Both the position numbers and the translations under genes were made by a program. The notes under the pieces were generated by a model. That model had not been told where the DNA came from and made no database searches. It was given only the letters and a program-made list of their open reading frames with translations. Positions 815 through 7,904 of a stretch of 64,000 nt of DNA are shown here, piece by piece. The stretch lies in the NCBI GenBank assembly GCA_048885525.1, contig JBHLLP010000017.1:1-64000 (forward strand). The letters run 5' to 3'. This DNA comes from Candidatus Hermodarchaeota archaeon. GTDB taxonomy: Archaea; Asgardarchaeota; Lokiarchaeia; Sigyniarchaeales; SOKP01. Every line of letters begins with the position of its first letter. Position 1 is the stretch's first letter.

Positions 815-1921
815 ATGGAAACTTGGAATATATCAAAAAAATTAAAGATAGAGTTATTAAAGAAATCTGGTAACATTGAAGATAACAGTAGGAGAATATT
901 GTTTATTCTTAGAAACTTAGGTCCACAAAGATTTATTAATTTAGTAAAATATTCAAACTTAAGTAGATCAACGGTATCTAAATATCTTAATCTTCATAGA
1001 AAAAATAAAAACATAGAACAAAGATTAATTACAGATAAGACAACAAATAAACAGTACAGAAGTTATGTAATAACAGAGAGAGGGATAGAAAAACTCGGAG
1101 AGGAACCGTTAAAATTAAAGGATGAAATATTTATTGTTAATGAACTAAAAGAAAATGTCAGAAAGCTTGAAAATTTAATTAATTTTTATAAAGAAATAAG
1201 CGTAGAAGACCCCTTTATTATTCAAATTGTAAGAATCATCTCTAAAATAGGAGATAACTTTTTTGAATTACAACAAGATCGAGATTTGTACTTATCTTTA
1301 TTTTATATCTTTTATAACTCAATTCTAGGACAAGGAGCATTCGCAAGAAATTACTGGCACTTTGATGAGTCCAGTTCTCAAAAATTTGTAGGTTATAAAT
1401 TAAATTTAGAACAGTTTAGTGAAGTATATAATGTGTCAAGGGAAGCAATCAACTATTTAGCACGATTTAAATTAATAACAAATGATTTTGGTTTTTATTT
1501 AATTAAACGTGAAAATAGTGATTTCTTCTTTCATGAAGAAGATTTATTGGGAACTACTACCTTAAGGCTAATTAAAGATAGATTAATAAATGAGATCATT
1601 AATCTTCAAGAAGGAATTTATGATGAGATCTATGACCTTGATATTATGGCTGAAGAAATAACTGATCAATTAAAAGATATGGGCTTGATTTGGGATGCGA
1701 TTAAAGATCAATTTCAATTATTAGTATTAAATTTGATTGTAAAGAATGCAATAGAGATGGGATTTTTAGACATTGAAAGAGAAATTTTGATGGAGGGAGT
1801 TACTCAATCGAAAAAAATGCCAATGTCTCTTGAAGGTAAAAAGCTCCAAGAAAATTTATTAGAAAATTCAAAAAAAGATTTGAATTTAAATGTACTTACT
1901 CTGATTGAGAATCTTAAATAA
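815..1921 (+). CDS. Winged-HTH (MarR/ArsR-like N-terminus) protein with unknown helical C-terminus
   Basis: LVKYSNLSRSTVSKYL...YVITERG wHTH pattern. Confidence 0.7.
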   Translation: METWNISKKLKIELLKKSGNIEDNSRRILFILRNLGPQRFINLVKYSNLSRSTVSKYLNLHRKNKNIEQRLITDKTTNKQYRSYVITERGIEKLGEEPLKLKDEIFIVNELKENVRKLENLINFYKEISVEDPFIIQIVRIISKIGDNFFELQQDRDLYLSLFYIFYNSILGQGAFARNYWHFDESSSQKFVGYKLNLEQFSEVYNVSREAINYLARFKLITNDFGFYLIKRENSDFFFHEEDLLGTTTLRLIKDRLINEIINLQEGIYDEIYDLDIMAEEITDQLKDMGLIWDAIKDQFQLLVLNLIVKNAIEMGFLDIEREILMEGVTQSKKMPMSLEGKKLQENLLENSKKDLNLNVLTLIENLK

Positions 1922-3718: not shown

Positions 3719-4654
3719 TTATTCAAGCATTTTCTCTATAGGTTTTAGTGCTCTTTTTGCAATATCTGAAGGAACTTTAACCTCATGTGTTTTATCATCT
3801 AAGTTTTCTAGAAGGTATTTAATCAATTCAAGGCTATGCTTTTTCATATTATAGCATACTAACTTATCTTTTGCTGTGTAAAAAGTTTTTTGTGGAAAAT
3901 CTTTTGCCATACGTTCCAAGAGTCCAATTTCAGTTCCTATGATAAATTCTTTTTCATCAGAATTACTATTCTTAACTTTATTATACATTTTCGCAGTCGA
4001 TCCTACATAATCAGATAGGTTTCTAACCTCTCTAATACATTCGGGATGAACAAGGAGTTTTGCGTTAGGATATTTTTGCCTTACCTTTTTTATATCCTCT
4101 GCTTTAATCTGTGAATGCACATAACAATGACCATTTTCTGGCATTTGAATACACTTTATACCAGATAGTTCCTCCGCGTAATCTGCCAAGTTTGCATCAG
4201 GACCGAATAATACAGCATCTTCATTAAATTCTTTACTCATTCTCTCCACTATTTTGACTGCATTTGAAGATGTACAGCAAATATCAGATTCAGCTTTAAC
4301 TGCTGCAGTTGAGTTTATATATACTACAACTGGAAGTCCGGGATGTTCTTTTTTAAATTTATTAACCATATCGGGAATTAAAAAAGCCGCCATGGGGCAA
4401 CAAGACTCATAATTCGGAATTAGTACGTGTTTATCTTGATTAATAATTGAGGCAGTTTCTGCCATAAAATCCACACCTGCAAATATGATATATTCTGTAT
4501 TTGCCTTTTTTGCAGAACGAGATAATCCAAGAGAGTCGCCTACAAAATCAGCGATTTCTTGGATTTCTATTGTTTGATAATAGTGAGCGAGGAGAACAAC
4601 GTCTTTTTTTTTCTTTAAACTGAGAATTTCTTGTTGTAAGTGGTTAACTGTCAT
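3719..4654 (-). CDS. nadA: Quinolinate synthase
   Basis: LAHYYQ, GDSLGL, GVDFMAE, CPMA, YINS, CTSSNA, HPEC, GST motifs. Confidence 0.95.
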   Translation of the reverse strand: MTVNHLQQEILSLKKKKDVVLLAHYYQTIEIQEIADFVGDSLGLSRSAKKANTEYIIFAGVDFMAETASIINQDKHVLIPNYESCCPMAAFLIPDMVNKFKKEHPGLPVVVYINSTAAVKAESDICCTSSNAVKIVERMSKEFNEDAVLFGPDANLADYAEELSGIKCIQMPENGHCYVHSQIKAEDIKKVRQKYPNAKLLVHPECIREVRNLSDYVGSTAKMYNKVKNSNSDEKEFIIGTEIGLLERMAKDFPQKTFYTAKDKLVCYNMKKHSLELIKYLLENLDDKTHEVKVPSDIAKRALKPIEKMLE

Positions 4655-4837
4655 TTTAAACTGTAACTTATATAAATTACCTATATCATTAAAAGGTGTA
4701 AATACAAATAAGTCCTCTTTTTATTATTTTTAATGATCATTAATAAACAATATTTTTTTTTTAATTAATGCGTTTTCAAAAGATTATTATATTTAAATAA
4801 ATTTTGTTGAACTTAACGAGATAAACGGGACATTATT

Positions 4838-6511
4838 ATGGAATTCATATATAAAGAGGAATTCTGGTTTATTAGCACTTTTTTGAATAGGTCTCTAGTG
4901 GATGGGAATAAAAAAAGTCAAGAAATTGAGAAGCTAATAAAAGAACACCTAAAAAATCTGAAAAAAGAGGATATCTACTACAAAATTAGAGATGACTTTG
5001 GCGATGATATAATAGATATGGCAAGAAATATATCATTAAAGTGCAATTGGATACCTTATTTAGAGAGTTTTCCATATGAAGATGAAAATAGCCAAAGAAC
5101 TTATGACACCTTAGGATTTTTTCAATTCGATGTTGAATATTATAAAGACCAGCCTTTTAAAAAACAAATTGTTAAATCTAACTTTATTCAACAGATTCCA
5201 CAGACTTTATTAGCATTTTTAAAAAATCATTCTATAAAAGAGGAGAATAGAGGGATTATTTTCGATTTAGAAAGTCCAATATATATATTTGTGACTTCTA
5301 ATAAATTAAAACCTGAAAATTTCGAATGGACGCAAGAGAATATTAATAAATTTAAAAAGACCATTGGATATTGGACCGAAATATATTCTGGGCAATGGGA
5401 AGATTATTCTGAAACATTATATGACAAACGTATTGAGAATAATTTATCTAATCGCCTTTCTGAGCTACATTTCATTCGTAGAAATTCTGGATTTATATAT
5501 ATGGCCGAAGAGAATTACGAAAATTTTTTTGAATCTTATATGAAACAATTTGTTCTAACCCCAACACCAAAAATGAGGGCAGTGTTATTTGCATTAAGAT
5601 TGATAAATGAATCACTTGATTTATTATTCTTAAAAGCCCAATCGGAAGAATTTAAGGATGTAGAAACTATTGAAAAAAAAATCAGAAATTTAAGGCTTTT
5701 AAGAGGTTTAATTCAAACTAATTTAAGCATTATTTATAATGAATTAGATTATAATAGGAGACAACACTATACAAGTGTGTTAAAACATCTTCTAAATGAA
5801 TTTGAAATTGAAAGTATTGTAAATAGAATTAATGAGAAATTTAATATTATATATGACTCTATGCAACAGTTGTATCAAAAGAAAAATGAAGAAATTCAAA
5901 AAAGAACGGAGAAAGGTCTTAATTTACTGAATCTACTTTTCGGAGCAGGAATATTAGCAGATCTAGGAGGTGTTATCATGATTGCTTTAAGTTTACAAGA
6001 AGGAGATCTCATATCAGTATTATTAAATAGTCTAATTGCTGTAGTGATAACCGGAATTTTAATCGTTACAATATTTTTCAACATTTACATGCGAATACAA
6101 ATTAAAAAAGTTAAAGTTGGACATACAGTAGATGCAATTATCGAAGATGGACAGGGAAATATAGTACTTATAAGGCGTAAATACCCTCCATTTCAAGGAT
6201 TCTATGCTCTTCCAGGAGGGTTTATTGAAGAAGGCGAAAAGCCGCAACAAGCATTACTCCGAGAAGTTAGAGAAGAGACAAACTTAAATATAAAAATTCT
6301 AAAAAAAATAGGAATTTTTGATGAAAAAGGACGCGATCCTCGAGGAAACATTCATAGCACTGCTTTTAAATGTATGGTTGATGACACTTCAAATATGAGA
6401 AGCGGTGATGATTCGAAAGATGTAGAACTTGTCTCAATAGAGCGATTGAAAGATATAGAATTAGCATTTGATCATAAAAAAATAATAAGAGCAGCAAATT
6501 TATTAGATTAA
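4838..6511 (+). CDS. Fusion: CorA-like soluble/helical domain + 2 TM + C-terminal Nudix hydrolase
   Basis: Long helical stalk into two hydrophobic helices (about 5917-6090), then Nudix box GGFIEEGEKPQQALLREVREETNL and RDPR, LAFDH motifs. Confidence 0.75.
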   Translation: MEFIYKEEFWFISTFLNRSLVDGNKKSQEIEKLIKEHLKNLKKEDIYYKIRDDFGDDIIDMARNISLKCNWIPYLESFPYEDENSQRTYDTLGFFQFDVEYYKDQPFKKQIVKSNFIQQIPQTLLAFLKNHSIKEENRGIIFDLESPIYIFVTSNKLKPENFEWTQENINKFKKTIGYWTEIYSGQWEDYSETLYDKRIENNLSNRLSELHFIRRNSGFIYMAEENYENFFESYMKQFVLTPTPKMRAVLFALRLINESLDLLFLKAQSEEFKDVETIEKKIRNLRLLRGLIQTNLSIIYNELDYNRRQHYTSVLKHLLNEFEIESIVNRINEKFNIIYDSMQQLYQKKNEEIQKRTEKGLNLLNLLFGAGILADLGGVIMIALSLQEGDLISVLLNSLIAVVITGILIVTIFFNIYMRIQIKKVKVGHTVDAIIEDGQGNIVLIRRKYPPFQGFYALPGGFIEEGEKPQQALLREVREETNLNIKILKKIGIFDEKGRDPRGNIHSTAFKCMVDDTSNMRSGDDSKDVELVSIERLKDIELAFDHKKIIRAANLLD

Positions 6512-6596: not shown

Positions 6597-7142
6597 ATGA
6601 TAATTATACCAAGTCCAATAACAAAAAAACAACCCCAAATTCACAAATCTGTTTATATAGCTCCAACAGCAGTTATTATTGGGGATGTATCCATTGGAGA
6701 ATTATCGAATGTTTGGTTTGGGGCAGTTTTAAGAGGGGATCAAGGACCAATTAAGATTGGAAAGAATACAAGTATCCAGGAAAATGTTACAATTCACATG
6801 GAGAAGGGGACATCTGTCAAAATTGGATCAAATTGCATAATTGGGCACCATGCGATGATTCATGGACCCGTAGAAATTGGGGATGGATGCTTGATTGGGA
6901 TCGGGAGTAATGTGCTTCATAATACTATAATGAATGATGGTGCAATGATAGCTGCAGGAGCCGTAATTACTAACAGAGAAATTCCTACCAGACAATTATG
7001 GGCGGGTCTTCCGGCTAAACTTCTAAAAAATCTACCAGAAGAGGAAGAATTGATAGGTGAGAAGACTGCTAGTGATTATGTAAATAATGGCTTAAAGTTT
7101 AGAAAATTTTTTGAAAAGAATCCAGAGTTTACTAAATTTTAA
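6597..7142 (+). CDS. Gamma-carbonic anhydrase family (hexapeptide repeat) protein
   Basis: VIIGDVSIG, VWFGAVLRGD, IQENVTIH, IGHHAMIHG. Confidence 0.9.
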   Translation: MIIIPSPITKKQPQIHKSVYIAPTAVIIGDVSIGELSNVWFGAVLRGDQGPIKIGKNTSIQENVTIHMEKGTSVKIGSNCIIGHHAMIHGPVEIGDGCLIGIGSNVLHNTIMNDGAMIAAGAVITNREIPTRQLWAGLPAKLLKNLPEEEELIGEKTASDYVNNGLKFRKFFEKNPEFTKF

Positions 7143-7166: not shown

Positions 7167-7904
7167 TTACATTGAGCAGATACATTTGTTATTTTTTACA
7201 ATATCAATTTTATTAAATCTTAGATCTATTAAGTTAACCATCAAAACTTTATTTTCTAAGTTAGGAAGTCCTAAAGTTGTTTTTATCACTTCCAATGCTT
7301 CTAATGTTCCTAGGATTCCTGGAGTAATCCCAATTACAGGTAAAGGACCCTCATCTGGAGGTGTTTCTATTGGTGAGAAAACACATTGATAACAAGCGCT
7401 CTTTTTTGGATTAATAGTTATGATTTGACCATAAAAGTCCTTTATTCCTGCTATTACACATCGTAAATTGTTTTCAATGGCAATCTTATTAACTAAGAAT
7501 TTTGTCTTAAAATTATCACTACAGTCTACAATGAAATCATAATCTATGTTCATTAAATATTTCTTGATGGAATCTTCATTTATGTAATCTTTATATGTAT
7601 TAATCTGAACATCAGAATTAAGTCTCGATAACACATCTTTTGCTGCCTTTGCTTTATCCTCTCCAATTTGAGTTTCATTATAGAGTATTTGCCTTTGCAA
7701 ATTAGAGATATCTAACACATCGTTATCAATTATTGTTAATTCGTTTATACCTGCAGCAGTGAGATATAATGCAAAAGGAGACCCTAAACCTCCCGCTCCA
7801 ATTTGGAGAACCTTTATTTGTGAAAGTTTTTCTTGTCCTTCCTCTCCAATTTCAGGAGATATTATTTGCCTTGAAAATCTTTCTTTTTGACTCTCGGTTA
7901 AAAT
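7167..7904 (-). CDS. ThiF/MoeB/E1-like adenylyltransferase (true start upstream of track ORF, probably ATT 7904 or 7907)
   Basis: Frame stays open upstream of 7718: ILTESQKERFSRQIISPEIGEEGQEKLSQIKVLQIGAGGLGSP...DNDVLDISNLQRQ; CYQC Zn site. Confidence 0.9.
   Translation of the reverse strand: MLTESQKERFSRQIISPEIGEEGQEKLSQIKVLQIGAGGLGSPFALYLTAAGINELTIIDNDVLDISNLQRQILYNETQIGEDKAKAAKDVLSRLNSDVQINTYKDYINEDSIKKYLMNIDYDFIVDCSDNFKTKFLVNKIAIENNLRCVIAGIKDFYGQIITINPKKSACYQCVFSPIETPPDEGPLPVIGITPGILGTLEALEVIKTTLGLPNLENKVLMVNLIDLRFNKIDIVKNNKCICSM

Follow-up and report, generated by a model that had tools for sequence, protein, structure and literature searches.

The stretch of DNA analysed here (the window, 64,000 nucleotides of a contig from a Candidatus Hermodarchaeota archaeon) carries at positions 4838–6511 of its forward strand an open reading frame for a protein of 557 amino acids, in which an N-terminal membrane module is fused to a C-terminal Nudix domain. 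The frame is full-length and more than 100 homologues of 557–560 aa align with it at 100% coverage; therefore, it is not a chance ORF. It is flanked by the quinolinate synthase gene nadA, which also matches the NCBIfam NadA equivalog model (1.9e-111), and by a gamma-carbonic-anhydrase-like gene (Table 1). The head-to-head arrangement with nadA across a gap of 183 bp, as described in a sequence-only reading of this DNA, agrees with the coordinates. In current databases, the fusion protein is named either "NUDIX domain-containing protein" or "8-oxo-dGTP diphosphatase". Either name leaves three quarters of the protein out of account; 8-oxo-dGTP diphosphatase is probably also incorrect.

Table 1. 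Features of the fusion gene and its immediate neighbours, in window positions.
Feature	Residues	Position	Strand	Remarks
nadA (quinolinate synthase)	311 aa	3719..4654	-	Divergent neighbour; Pfam NadA 5.7e-110
Divergent intergenic region		4655..4837	.	183 bp, AT-rich, between nadA and fusion gene; no element identified
Cytoplasmic alpha/beta domain of CorA-like module	aa 1–223	4838..5506	+	AF2 pLDDT mostly >90; most conserved residues of the family
Helical bundle; long stalk helix continuing as TM1	aa 224–360	5507..5917	+	AF2 helices
TM1	aa 361–386	5918..5995	+	Hydropathy and family alignment; no GMN motif
TM2, then basic stretch RIQIKKVK	aa 391–419	6008..6094	+	Hydropathy
Nudix domain, NrtR/ADPR-pyrophosphatase-like type	aa 427–557	6116..6508	+	Pfam NUDIX
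GRDPRG motif	aa 498–503	6329..6346	+	Nudix domain
LAFDH motif	aa 542–546	6461..6475	+	Nudix domain
Gamma-carbonic-anhydrase-like hexapeptide-repeat gene		6597..7142	+	Pfam Hexapep 3e-23; co-directional with fusion gene

The architecture that had been proposed from the sequence, namely a soluble part of about 360 residues, two transmembrane helices and a C-terminal Nudix domain, was confirmed by hydropathy, Pfam and AF2 modelling (pLDDT 91.3 and pTM 0.85 for the full-length protein; pLDDT 91.4 for aa 1–425 modelled separately). In the bundle and stalk, the AF2 model places helices at residues 224–240, 242–268, 275–305, 309–321 and 324–385, the last of which is the expected long stalk helix that continues into TM1. 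The two membrane helices are connected by a short acidic loop (QEGD). Given two TM helices with Lys/Arg on both flanks, the N-terminal and the Nudix parts lie on the same side, as previously suggested, and most likely both in the cytoplasm. The linker between TM2 and the Nudix domain comprises only about eight residues and is conserved in the family alignment. A predicted complex of four copies of aa 224–425 reached a score of 0.30 (mark 0.42), which speaks neither for nor against an oligomer.

The kinship of the N-terminal module was addressed by three structure searches, whose best matches were CorA, ZntB, Mrs2 and CmaX. Foldseek returned only Nudix structures with the whole 557-aa model; with the separately folded aa 1–425, the top matches were almost all CorA, with a probability of up to 0.99. 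An exhaustive VIA-align comparison with 48,161 chains ranked T. maritima CorA first (Z 7.4 over 240 aa), followed by M. jannaschii CorA (Z 7.2, 244 aa), human MRS2 (Z 6.8) and ZntB (Z 6.7). The resemblance to CorA and ZntB presumed in the sequence-only reading was seen again on a second look at the Foldseek matches: ranks 1–24 were all occupied by CorA-superfamily chains with Z scores of 6.2–8.5, which are moderate and fall in the range where the tool warns of a common helical arrangement. These alignments span positions 2–423 of the module, with about 245 aligned residues between positions 5 and 421 at Z scores of up to 8.5, and the first unrelated fold is ClyA, with a score of 6.0. The counterparts of aa 1–223 are cytosolic domains, namely those of E. 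coli CorA (5n77, Z 6.4), C. jejuni CorA (8zak, Z 6.6) and ZntB (3ck6, Z 5.3). Likewise, the neighbours of the module in the ESM Atlas include a cluster named "CorA-like protein" (TM 0.60), and family members that have no Nudix domain stop directly after TM2, like CorA.

None of this is mirrored in the sequence. The fusion protein matches neither the Pfam CorA model (PF01544) nor DUF155 at E values up to 1, a search of PDB sequences with the family HMM yields only coiled-coil noise and no CorA at E values up to 10, and hhalign of the family against 19 Asgard CorA proteins gives a probability of 3.5%, with the entry to TM1 as the single aligned stretch. Thus, the earlier proposal of a CorA-like N-terminus stands for the fold but not for the sequence: the structural models support a CorA-like fold for aa 1–425, CorA kinship is visible at the fold level only, and the module is a separate sequence family with the CorA architecture and without GMN.

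The absence of the GMN motif, already remarked upon for this single protein, is borne out by the alignment of 54 family members. TM1 ends in MIALSL-QEGD, no G-M/V/I-N motif follows it, and the outer loop varies across the family in both sequence and length. By comparison, YGMN or FGMN is found in every Asgard CorA control, and the same genome holds a separate canonical CorA with YGMNF. Since the motif is missing and the extracellular loop is variable, no selectivity filter can be named. The strongest conservation is found not at the outer mouth but in a polar and aromatic set of residues in the cytoplasmic domain and the helices. Within aa 1–223, at least 85% of the 54 members keep W71, G93, D143, W164, W179, Y183, S184, G185, D189, Y190, R198, N202, L203, S204, R206, S208, E209 (100%), H211, N216 and S217; Y234, D261, N306, H310 and K334 are conserved in the bundle and stalk. 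In TM1, N365 is conserved at the cytoplasmic end and an acidic residue is frequent in mid-membrane (D375).

The Nudix domain is recognized by Pfam (PF00293, aa 430–551, 3.8e-22; cut-off 21.1 bits). Its box at aa 461–483 (6218–6286) reads G-x5-E-x7-REVREETNL and was rightly called almost canonical: compared with the reference GX5EX7REUXEEXGU, it keeps G, E, RE and EE, hence the catalytic Glu residues, and deviates only in the final G, which is replaced by N. The RDPR and LAFDH motifs had been taken as typical of ADP-ribose pyrophosphatases and NadM. The former part of this assignment holds, as GRDPRG and LAFDH are common to 2yyh, 3i9x and the NrtR protein EF2700 (2fml), in line with an NrtR/COG1051 ADPR-pyrophosphatase-like type; the latter is slightly off, because NadM has GRSLRG or DRSVRG and EDH instead of FDH at these positions. 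In NCBIfam, NadM-Nudix models and NtrR score best, all of them below the whole-protein cut-offs because only the Nudix domain is shared. Among PDB sequences, 2yyh is the best match (6.8e-23, 38% identity), followed by 3i9x, 2fml (NrtR), 2qjo and 2qjt (NadM) and 3gz8 (NrtR with ADPR), and Foldseek aligns the domain with 2yyh at E 5.6e-12, TM 0.82 and an rmsd of 1.8. Domains of the NrtR type bind ADPR, and where their signature is intact they also hydrolyse the compound (PMC2330246). An assignment to the ADP-ribose-pyrophosphatase/NrtR type is therefore supported by sequence comparison, with the proviso that homology-based assignment of Nudix substrates is unreliable and that the closest structure, 2yyh, names no substrate in its entry title.

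Judged by its residues, the domain looks catalytically competent, and most fusion proteins retain RE..EE. In four divergent members (P0124, P0132, P0137 and P0138), the catalytic box is degenerate but the domain persists together with LAF[DN]H or LSFHH, which hints at a sensing role. In its genome, the domain is the only Nudix of its subtype, the next paralogue being 34% identical. Pfam found no HTH family in the protein, which ends six residues past the Nudix match (551 of 557).

The fusion is no assembly artefact. Rather than being unique to this assembly, it is conserved across Lokiarchaeia-type Asgard genomes, with more than 120 protein clusters of 557–560 aa at 65–82% identity, and of the 61 genomes sampled from its class, 41 contain it, usually in one copy. 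The fusions form one clade (SH-aLRT 97). Both modules are also carried by a paralogous lineage and by a full-length homologue from a red alga, nested within the family. A search of the literature on CorA plus Nudix architectures found no paper describing the fusion, in agreement with the sequence-only reading, which knew of no described protein of this kind.

The two modules can nevertheless be separated. Nudix-less forms of the membrane module occur in other Asgard families, the Heimdall-type P0143 being one such form, and P0139 has lost its Nudix domain. Conversely, two genomes of the same genus (G008 and G168) hold only a soluble Nudix protein of 141–152 aa, 64–65% identical, in the same slot. 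Upstream of the stand-alone Nudix gene in same-genus genomes a vestige of TM2 is left, and M418 of the fusion corresponds to the position of the start codon of the gene in G008. Coupling is therefore not obligatory, and the membrane module is dispensable: sister species keep the Nudix protein alone at the same locus.

The gene neighbourhood is a collinear housekeeping block (nadA, gamma-CA, ThiF, Roadblock, L37e, LSm). Of 23 orthologous loci (at least 59% identity), about 15 have nadA head-to-head with the fusion gene. In the relative L001, the two are separated by an aminotransferase gene, and nadA is missing beside most paralogues of 47–53% identity and beside distant fusions (L003, L004). 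The association with nadA noted for this locus thus extends only to close relatives, in which the entire neighbourhood is collinear; more distant members have lost it. As adjacency is confined to close orthologues, it was taken as synteny by descent, and nadA was not retained as a functional partner; a metabolic link with it may exist. The most constant neighbour is the gamma-carbonic-anhydrase-like gene, which lies downstream in about 19 of the 23 loci and also directly downstream of the stand-alone Nudix gene in G008 and G168. The neighbourhoods of two Nudix-less members (L005, L006) show no shared theme.

The reading favoured here, and held tentatively, is that of a two-module inner-membrane protein in which a CorA-fold oligomer that conducts ions or signals is coupled to the hydrolysis or sensing of an ADPR-type compound by the Nudix domain. 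Module 1 (aa 1–425) would assemble in a CorA-like manner into an oligomer and conduct ions or transmit a signal under the control of the conserved cytoplasmic site. Module 2 (aa 427–557) hangs directly from the cytoplasmic end of TM2; its putative activity at the membrane is the hydrolysis of ADP-ribose or of a closely related NDP-X compound. The modules would be coupled in that the Nudix domain removes or senses the nucleotide controlling the membrane module, a proposal modelled on CRISPR CorA effectors with their ligand-degrading enzyme and on TRPM2 with its NUDT9-like domain. A more specific version is an archaeal nucleotide-controlled CorA-fold channel, in which the conserved cytoplasmic site, the Nudix domain or both would take up ADP-ribose or a related NAD-derived nucleotide, whereupon an ion path would open; by hydrolysing this ligand, the fused Nudix domain would terminate the signal. 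Put in these terms, as an independent invention of the TRPM2/CRISPR CorA-NrN principle that serves NAD/ADPR signalling of a housekeeping kind in Asgard archaea and reached a red alga by a single transfer, the proposal is unlikely. The architecture is real and widespread, and the nucleotide-gated channel may be regarded as a candidate reading of it.

The protein might instead be a membrane-tethered housekeeping ADP-ribose (NDP-X) pyrophosphatase for nucleotide clean-up or NAD recycling, whose CorA-fold module anchors, oligomerises or regulates the enzyme via its own cytoplasmic ligand site and conducts nothing. Such a role, somewhat unlikely on balance, would fit the swap of the fusion for a soluble Nudix protein in sister species, the finding that genomes have one of the two, the fusion or a close stand-alone homologue, alongside one distant paralogue, the constant gamma-CA-like neighbour that stays with the Nudix part, and the lack of both a GMN motif and a conserved outer mouth. 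However, a module of 425 residues kept at 65–82% identity would be a costly anchor, its occurrence alone in other Asgard families means that it has a function of its own, and the solved structures with a CorA fold found in the searches are all ion channels or transporters. It is less probable still that a CorA-kind cation channel or transporter and a Nudix enzyme were fused without functional coupling, as neighbouring genes or through a neutral fusion. Each module does occur and is lost independently, but the fusion had a single origin and was then retained across several genera and families, the paralogous lineage and the red-algal copy still hold both modules, and the short linker between TM2 and the Nudix domain is conserved.

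An anti-virus effector acting by abortive infection, with a nucleotide alarm that opens a CorA-like pore and a Nudix domain that resets the signal, is suggested by the analogy with type III CRISPR CorA fused to NrN (PMC10600005). In its favour, the distant member P0142 adjoins a VapBC pair and has a SIR2-TPR gene some 5 kb upstream of it, and the Nudix part matches the PADLOC candidate PDC-S07. Against it, the N-terminal module matches no PADLOC model, the housekeeping block around the gene is stable and collinear, the gene is usually single-copy, and no cas or other defence genes are present in its vicinity, either in the window or at related loci; cas genes were sought within 16 kb around the fusion gene and in five related loci, and none was found. 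A role in defence is very improbable.

CorA-fold proteins are known as divalent-cation channels and, more recently, as nucleotide-activated CRISPR effectors. If the favoured two-module reading is true, ligand-controlled CorA-type membrane proteins would extend to ordinary archaeal physiology, and in those archaea most closely related to eukaryotes NAD/ADP-ribose turnover would be tied to the membrane. Natural controls exist within the family: Nudix-less forms, Nudix-only proteins encoded in the same slot, and members whose box is dead.

Among known systems, CorA, ZntB, Mrs2 and CmaX share with the module a cytoplasmic alpha/beta domain, a helical bundle, a stalk helix continuous with TM1, and TM2. 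Unlike them, the module exceeds CorA in length by about 75 residues, is followed by a Nudix domain after TM2, and has no detectable sequence similarity to the superfamily, no GMN motif and no conserved outer loop. TRPM2 is a 6-TM TRP cation channel with a C-terminal NUDT9-homology domain, and is likewise a channel-type membrane protein with a cytoplasmic C-terminal Nudix domain of the ADP-ribose type. The analogy is one of principle only: the fusion protein has two TMs and a CorA-like, unrelated membrane fold, and most members have an intact Nudix box.

Of the characterised proteins, those most closely related to the Nudix domain are NrtR and NadM-Nudix (COG1051; 2fml, 3gz5/3gz8, 2qjo, 2qjt). 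NrtR-type proteins have the GRDPRG and LAFDH motifs in common with the fusion protein, and many nrtR genes adjoin NAD-synthesis genes, as the fusion gene adjoins nadA (PMC2330246). In contrast to NrtR, the fusion protein has no C-terminal winged-helix DNA-binding domain, and in contrast to NadM it has no NMN adenylyltransferase domain, its partner being a membrane module. The best single Nudix match, 2yyh from Aquifex aeolicus, is a stand-alone soluble protein of 139 aa. Type III CRISPR CorA effectors are paired with or fused to an NrN or DEDD phosphodiesterase or a SAM-AMP lyase (PMC10600005). Similarly to the fusion family, they combine a divergent CorA-type membrane module, having a distinct cytoplasmic domain, with a nucleotide-acting enzyme, and their conserved residues lie in the cytoplasmic part. 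In the fusion protein, however, the fused enzyme is a Nudix domain rather than a DHH or DEDD phosphodiesterase and the CRISPR or defence context is absent; within a single archaeal class, the gene behaves like a stable part of the chromosome.

The target ORF, listed with genetic code table 11, encodes a fusion protein (P0001) that the sequence-only reading had described correctly in every detail that can be checked. NUDIX is its sole Pfam domain (residues 430-551, 3.8e-22); residues 1-425, here called the N-module, have no Pfam match. Hydropathy gives two transmembrane (TM) helices at about 361-386 and 391-419, in keeping with the claimed layout of two TM helices and a C-terminal Nudix domain. 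The acidic sequence QEGD connects them, and stretches rich in Lys and Arg lie on either side, an arrangement from which both soluble parts should be cytoplasmic. The ORF coordinates likewise agree with the 183-bp divergent region that the gene was said to share with nadA.

Features of the target locus and of related loci
Feature	Position	Strand	Remarks
368-aa protein	815-1921	+	weak N-terminal winged-helix match; syntenic in 65%-identity relative
Leucine-rich-repeat protein, 558 aa	2035-3711	+	beyond nadA from target; syntenic in 65%-identity relative
nadA	3719-4654	-	ORF listing; product vs Pfam NadA 5.7e-110
Target ORF, 557 codons (P0001)	4838-6511	+	ORF listing
gamma-CA (gamma-carbonic-anhydrase-like), hexapeptide-repeat	6597-7142	+	most constant neighbour of Nudix part
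ThiF/E1-like ORF, 183 aa, GTG start	7167-7718	-	profile positions 56-236 of 238
Stand-alone soluble Nudix gene, genome G008	L067:1495-1953	-	slot of fusion
Stand-alone soluble Nudix gene, genome G168	L068:1495-1953	-	slot of fusion
Eukaryotic full-length homologue (P0137, P0219)	L072:175-3045	+	JGI 3300016809, contig Ga0186638_100012

The AF2 model of the whole protein, built from a 64-sequence alignment, has a pLDDT of 91.3 and a pTM of 0.85 (pLDDT 91.4 for residues 1-425 alone) and resolves the N-module into an alpha/beta domain (1-223), helices (224-321), a helix of 60 residues (324-385) running from the cytoplasm through TM1, and then TM2. Foldseek against the PDB returned weak E-values (3e-3 and up) in a list that is nearly all CorA, and an exhaustive VIA-align comparison with 48,161 chains placed T. 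maritima CorA, M. jannaschii CorA, human MRS2 and ZntB at ranks 1-4 (Z 7.4-6.7, 215-244 residues aligned across the entire N-module). After re-scoring of the Foldseek candidates, CorA-superfamily chains hold all of ranks 1-24 (Z 6.2-8.5), the best other fold being ClyA (Z 6.0); isolated cytosolic domains are among them, and the match is therefore not one of long helices alone. An ESM Atlas shape search found the family itself (TM 0.83) and further clusters at TM about 0.6, namely MJ0711_N, 'CorA-like protein' and a bacterial cluster with GNAT instead; language-model neighbours point in the same direction. The kinship with CorA that had been proposed thus stands at the fold level, but sequence methods find nothing: the Pfam CorA model does not match P0001, the family HMM did not find CorA among PDB sequences, and hhalign of the family with 19 Asgard CorA proteins gave a probability of 3.5%. 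The family alignment also bears out the reported absence of the GMN motif, the outer loop is unconserved among 54 members, and a separate canonical CorA (YGMNF) is encoded elsewhere in the genome. We conclude that the N-module is CorA-like in fold, forms a separate sequence family and does not serve as the Mg2+ channel of the cell. The bacterial cluster (Bacteroidota, about 675 aa, shape match TM 0.60) carries a GNAT acetyltransferase domain in 79% of its members, a hint that the joining of CorA-like modules to cytoplasmic enzymes may be more widespread.

Over the same 54 family members (threshold at least 85%), most conserved positions fall in the C-terminal half of the alpha/beta domain: D143, W164, W179, Y183-S-G, D189-Y, R198, N202-L-S, R206, S208-E209, H211 and N216-S217, with E209 invariant. 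Conservation extends to Y234, D261, N306, H310 and K334 in the adjoining helices and to N365, where TM1 enters the membrane from the cytoplasm; an acidic residue (Asp or Glu) in mid-TM1 is frequent in the family. This distribution suggests a putative site on the cytoplasmic side, for a ligand or an ion, instead of a selectivity filter at the outer mouth.

The Nudix box (aa 461-483), rightly called near-canonical, keeps every catalytic position, the sole change being Asn for the last Gly. The motifs GRDPRG (498-503) and LAFDH (542-546) that follow were also read correctly and are common to P0001, 2yyh, 3i9x and 2fml, but 'NadM-typical' does not hold literally, since NadM does not match them to the letter. 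Among NCBIfam models the best matches are to the Nudix halves of bifunctional NadM and to NtrR, a repressor that responds to ADPR; by sequence, the nearest solved structures are 2yyh (6.8e-23), 3i9x, 2fml (EF2700, an NrtR), 2qjo and 2qjt (NadM) and 3gz8 (NrtR), a ranking with which the Foldseek match to 2yyh (TM 0.82, rmsd 1.8) is concordant. As the NrtR/NadM-type group is the ADP-ribose pyrophosphatase group, whose members hydrolyse ADPR when the signature is intact and only bind it when perturbed (PMC2330246), ADPR would be the best guess, by homology only, for the ligand or substrate. Four divergent fusion members retain the domain with a dead box, and the window's genome holds no second Nudix of this subtype.

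The fusion is not unique to this assembly. A word-indexed search yielded more than 120 clusters of 557-560 aa and 65-82% identity from MAGs of Lokiarchaeota, Promethearchaeota, Hermod-, Thor- and Hodarchaeota, whose current names go no further than 'NUDIX domain-containing protein' or '8-oxo-dGTP diphosphatase'. Exhaustive HMMER with residues 1-425 gave only 93 representatives (50% clustering); 15 of the 39 long ones include Nudix, and the others, about 400-440 aa, end after TM2. The N-module occurs in 55 of 251 sampled Asgard genomes: 37 of the 55 genomes sampled from the window's family have it (its own genome counted), as do 3 of 5 and 1 of 1 from the two sister families within the class; Nudix-less forms occur in three other Asgard families, one being labelled Heimdallarchaeota. 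In a tree of 35 proteins, rooted at midpoint only, the fusions group in a single clade (SH-aLRT 97), and Nudix-less forms branch outside it, except for P0139, which is nested within and has lost its Nudix. A eukaryotic homologue also nests in this clade, which suggests that a red alga acquired the gene from an Asgard archaeon. Represented by a 7.8-kb contig and an MMETSP transcript (849 aa), it is 34% identical to P0001 over N-module, both TMs and Nudix (BLASTP 3e-109), is extended at both the N- and the C-terminus, and has a degenerate Nudix box. GC on the contig is 46-51%, and the Pho88 gene that the contig also carries has its closest matches in the red algae Timspurckia (58%) and Porphyridium (52%). 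A literature search found no published description of this architecture, which newly combines known kinds, the N-module being an unannotated CorA-fold family.

The supposed synteny with nadA was borne out in part: at loci of at least 59% identity nadA stands head-to-head in about 15 of 23 and gamma-CA downstream in about 19 of 23, but both are missing beside distant fusions and most 47-53% paralogues. The collinear block in such relatives comprises ubiquitin-like, HTH, LRR, nadA, target, gamma-CA, ThiF, Roadblock, L37e, LSm and HGD genes; one relative has an aminotransferase gene between nadA and target. Because NrtR genes also adjoin NAD genes (PMC2330246), the link with nadA is suggestive, if weakly evidenced here. 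gamma-CA begins 85 bp downstream of the target, and the interval contains a T-rich stretch and a TATA-like sequence, so co-transcription is uncertain. In another genome of the genus (G153, locus L061), the same gamma-CA and nadA flank a 50%-identical paralogue-like fusion copy, which is inverted relative to both; this slot seems re-occupied or rearranged. The syntenic ThiF/E1-like gene of a relative encodes 243 aa, and the 5' part of the window's ORF may be read differently. The 65%-identity relative has a ubiquitin-family gene further upstream of its leucine-rich-repeat and 368-aa genes.

The layout of the protein, its fold, its intact Nudix box, its conservation and its modularity are findings. 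As to mechanism, we infer, by analogy, that N-modules would assemble into an oligomer like that of CorA, with control exerted from the conserved cytoplasmic site and an ADPR-type hydrolase coupled to the base of the oligomer; we prefer this reading tentatively, as somewhat short of probable. Its main rival, in which the N-module conducts nothing and the protein is an ADPR pyrophosphatase tethered to the membrane, is rather unlikely, and an uncoupled fusion of the two parts is improbable. On all three bears the finding that 8 of 17 other sampled genomes of the genus have no N-module match, with a stand-alone Nudix in 5 of the 5 re-searched. In G008 and G168 this protein (141-152 aa, 64-65% identical to the P0001 domain) is encoded directly upstream of a retained gamma-CA and beside ThiF, the same slot as the fusion; the Nudix is thus an autonomous enzyme, probably housekeeping, and the membrane module an optional partner. 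Both nest among fusion domains in the Nudix-domain tree, and the membrane module was therefore deleted there. In-frame sequence upstream of the G008 ATG still resembles the TM2 end, and since this ATG corresponds to fusion M418, M418 is a possible additional internal start in the fusion gene.

A role as defence effector is very improbable: the target's neighbourhood has no defence genes, and no PADLOC model recognises the N-module. This role and the uncoupled fusion are less likely than the preferred reading and its main rival. For the preferred reading, a controlled oligomer coupled to a hydrolase, the CRISPR CorA effectors, which are paired or fused with an enzyme degrading their ligand (PMC10600005), are a precedent for combining a membrane module with a ligand-degrading enzyme, and TRPM2 is a second published one.
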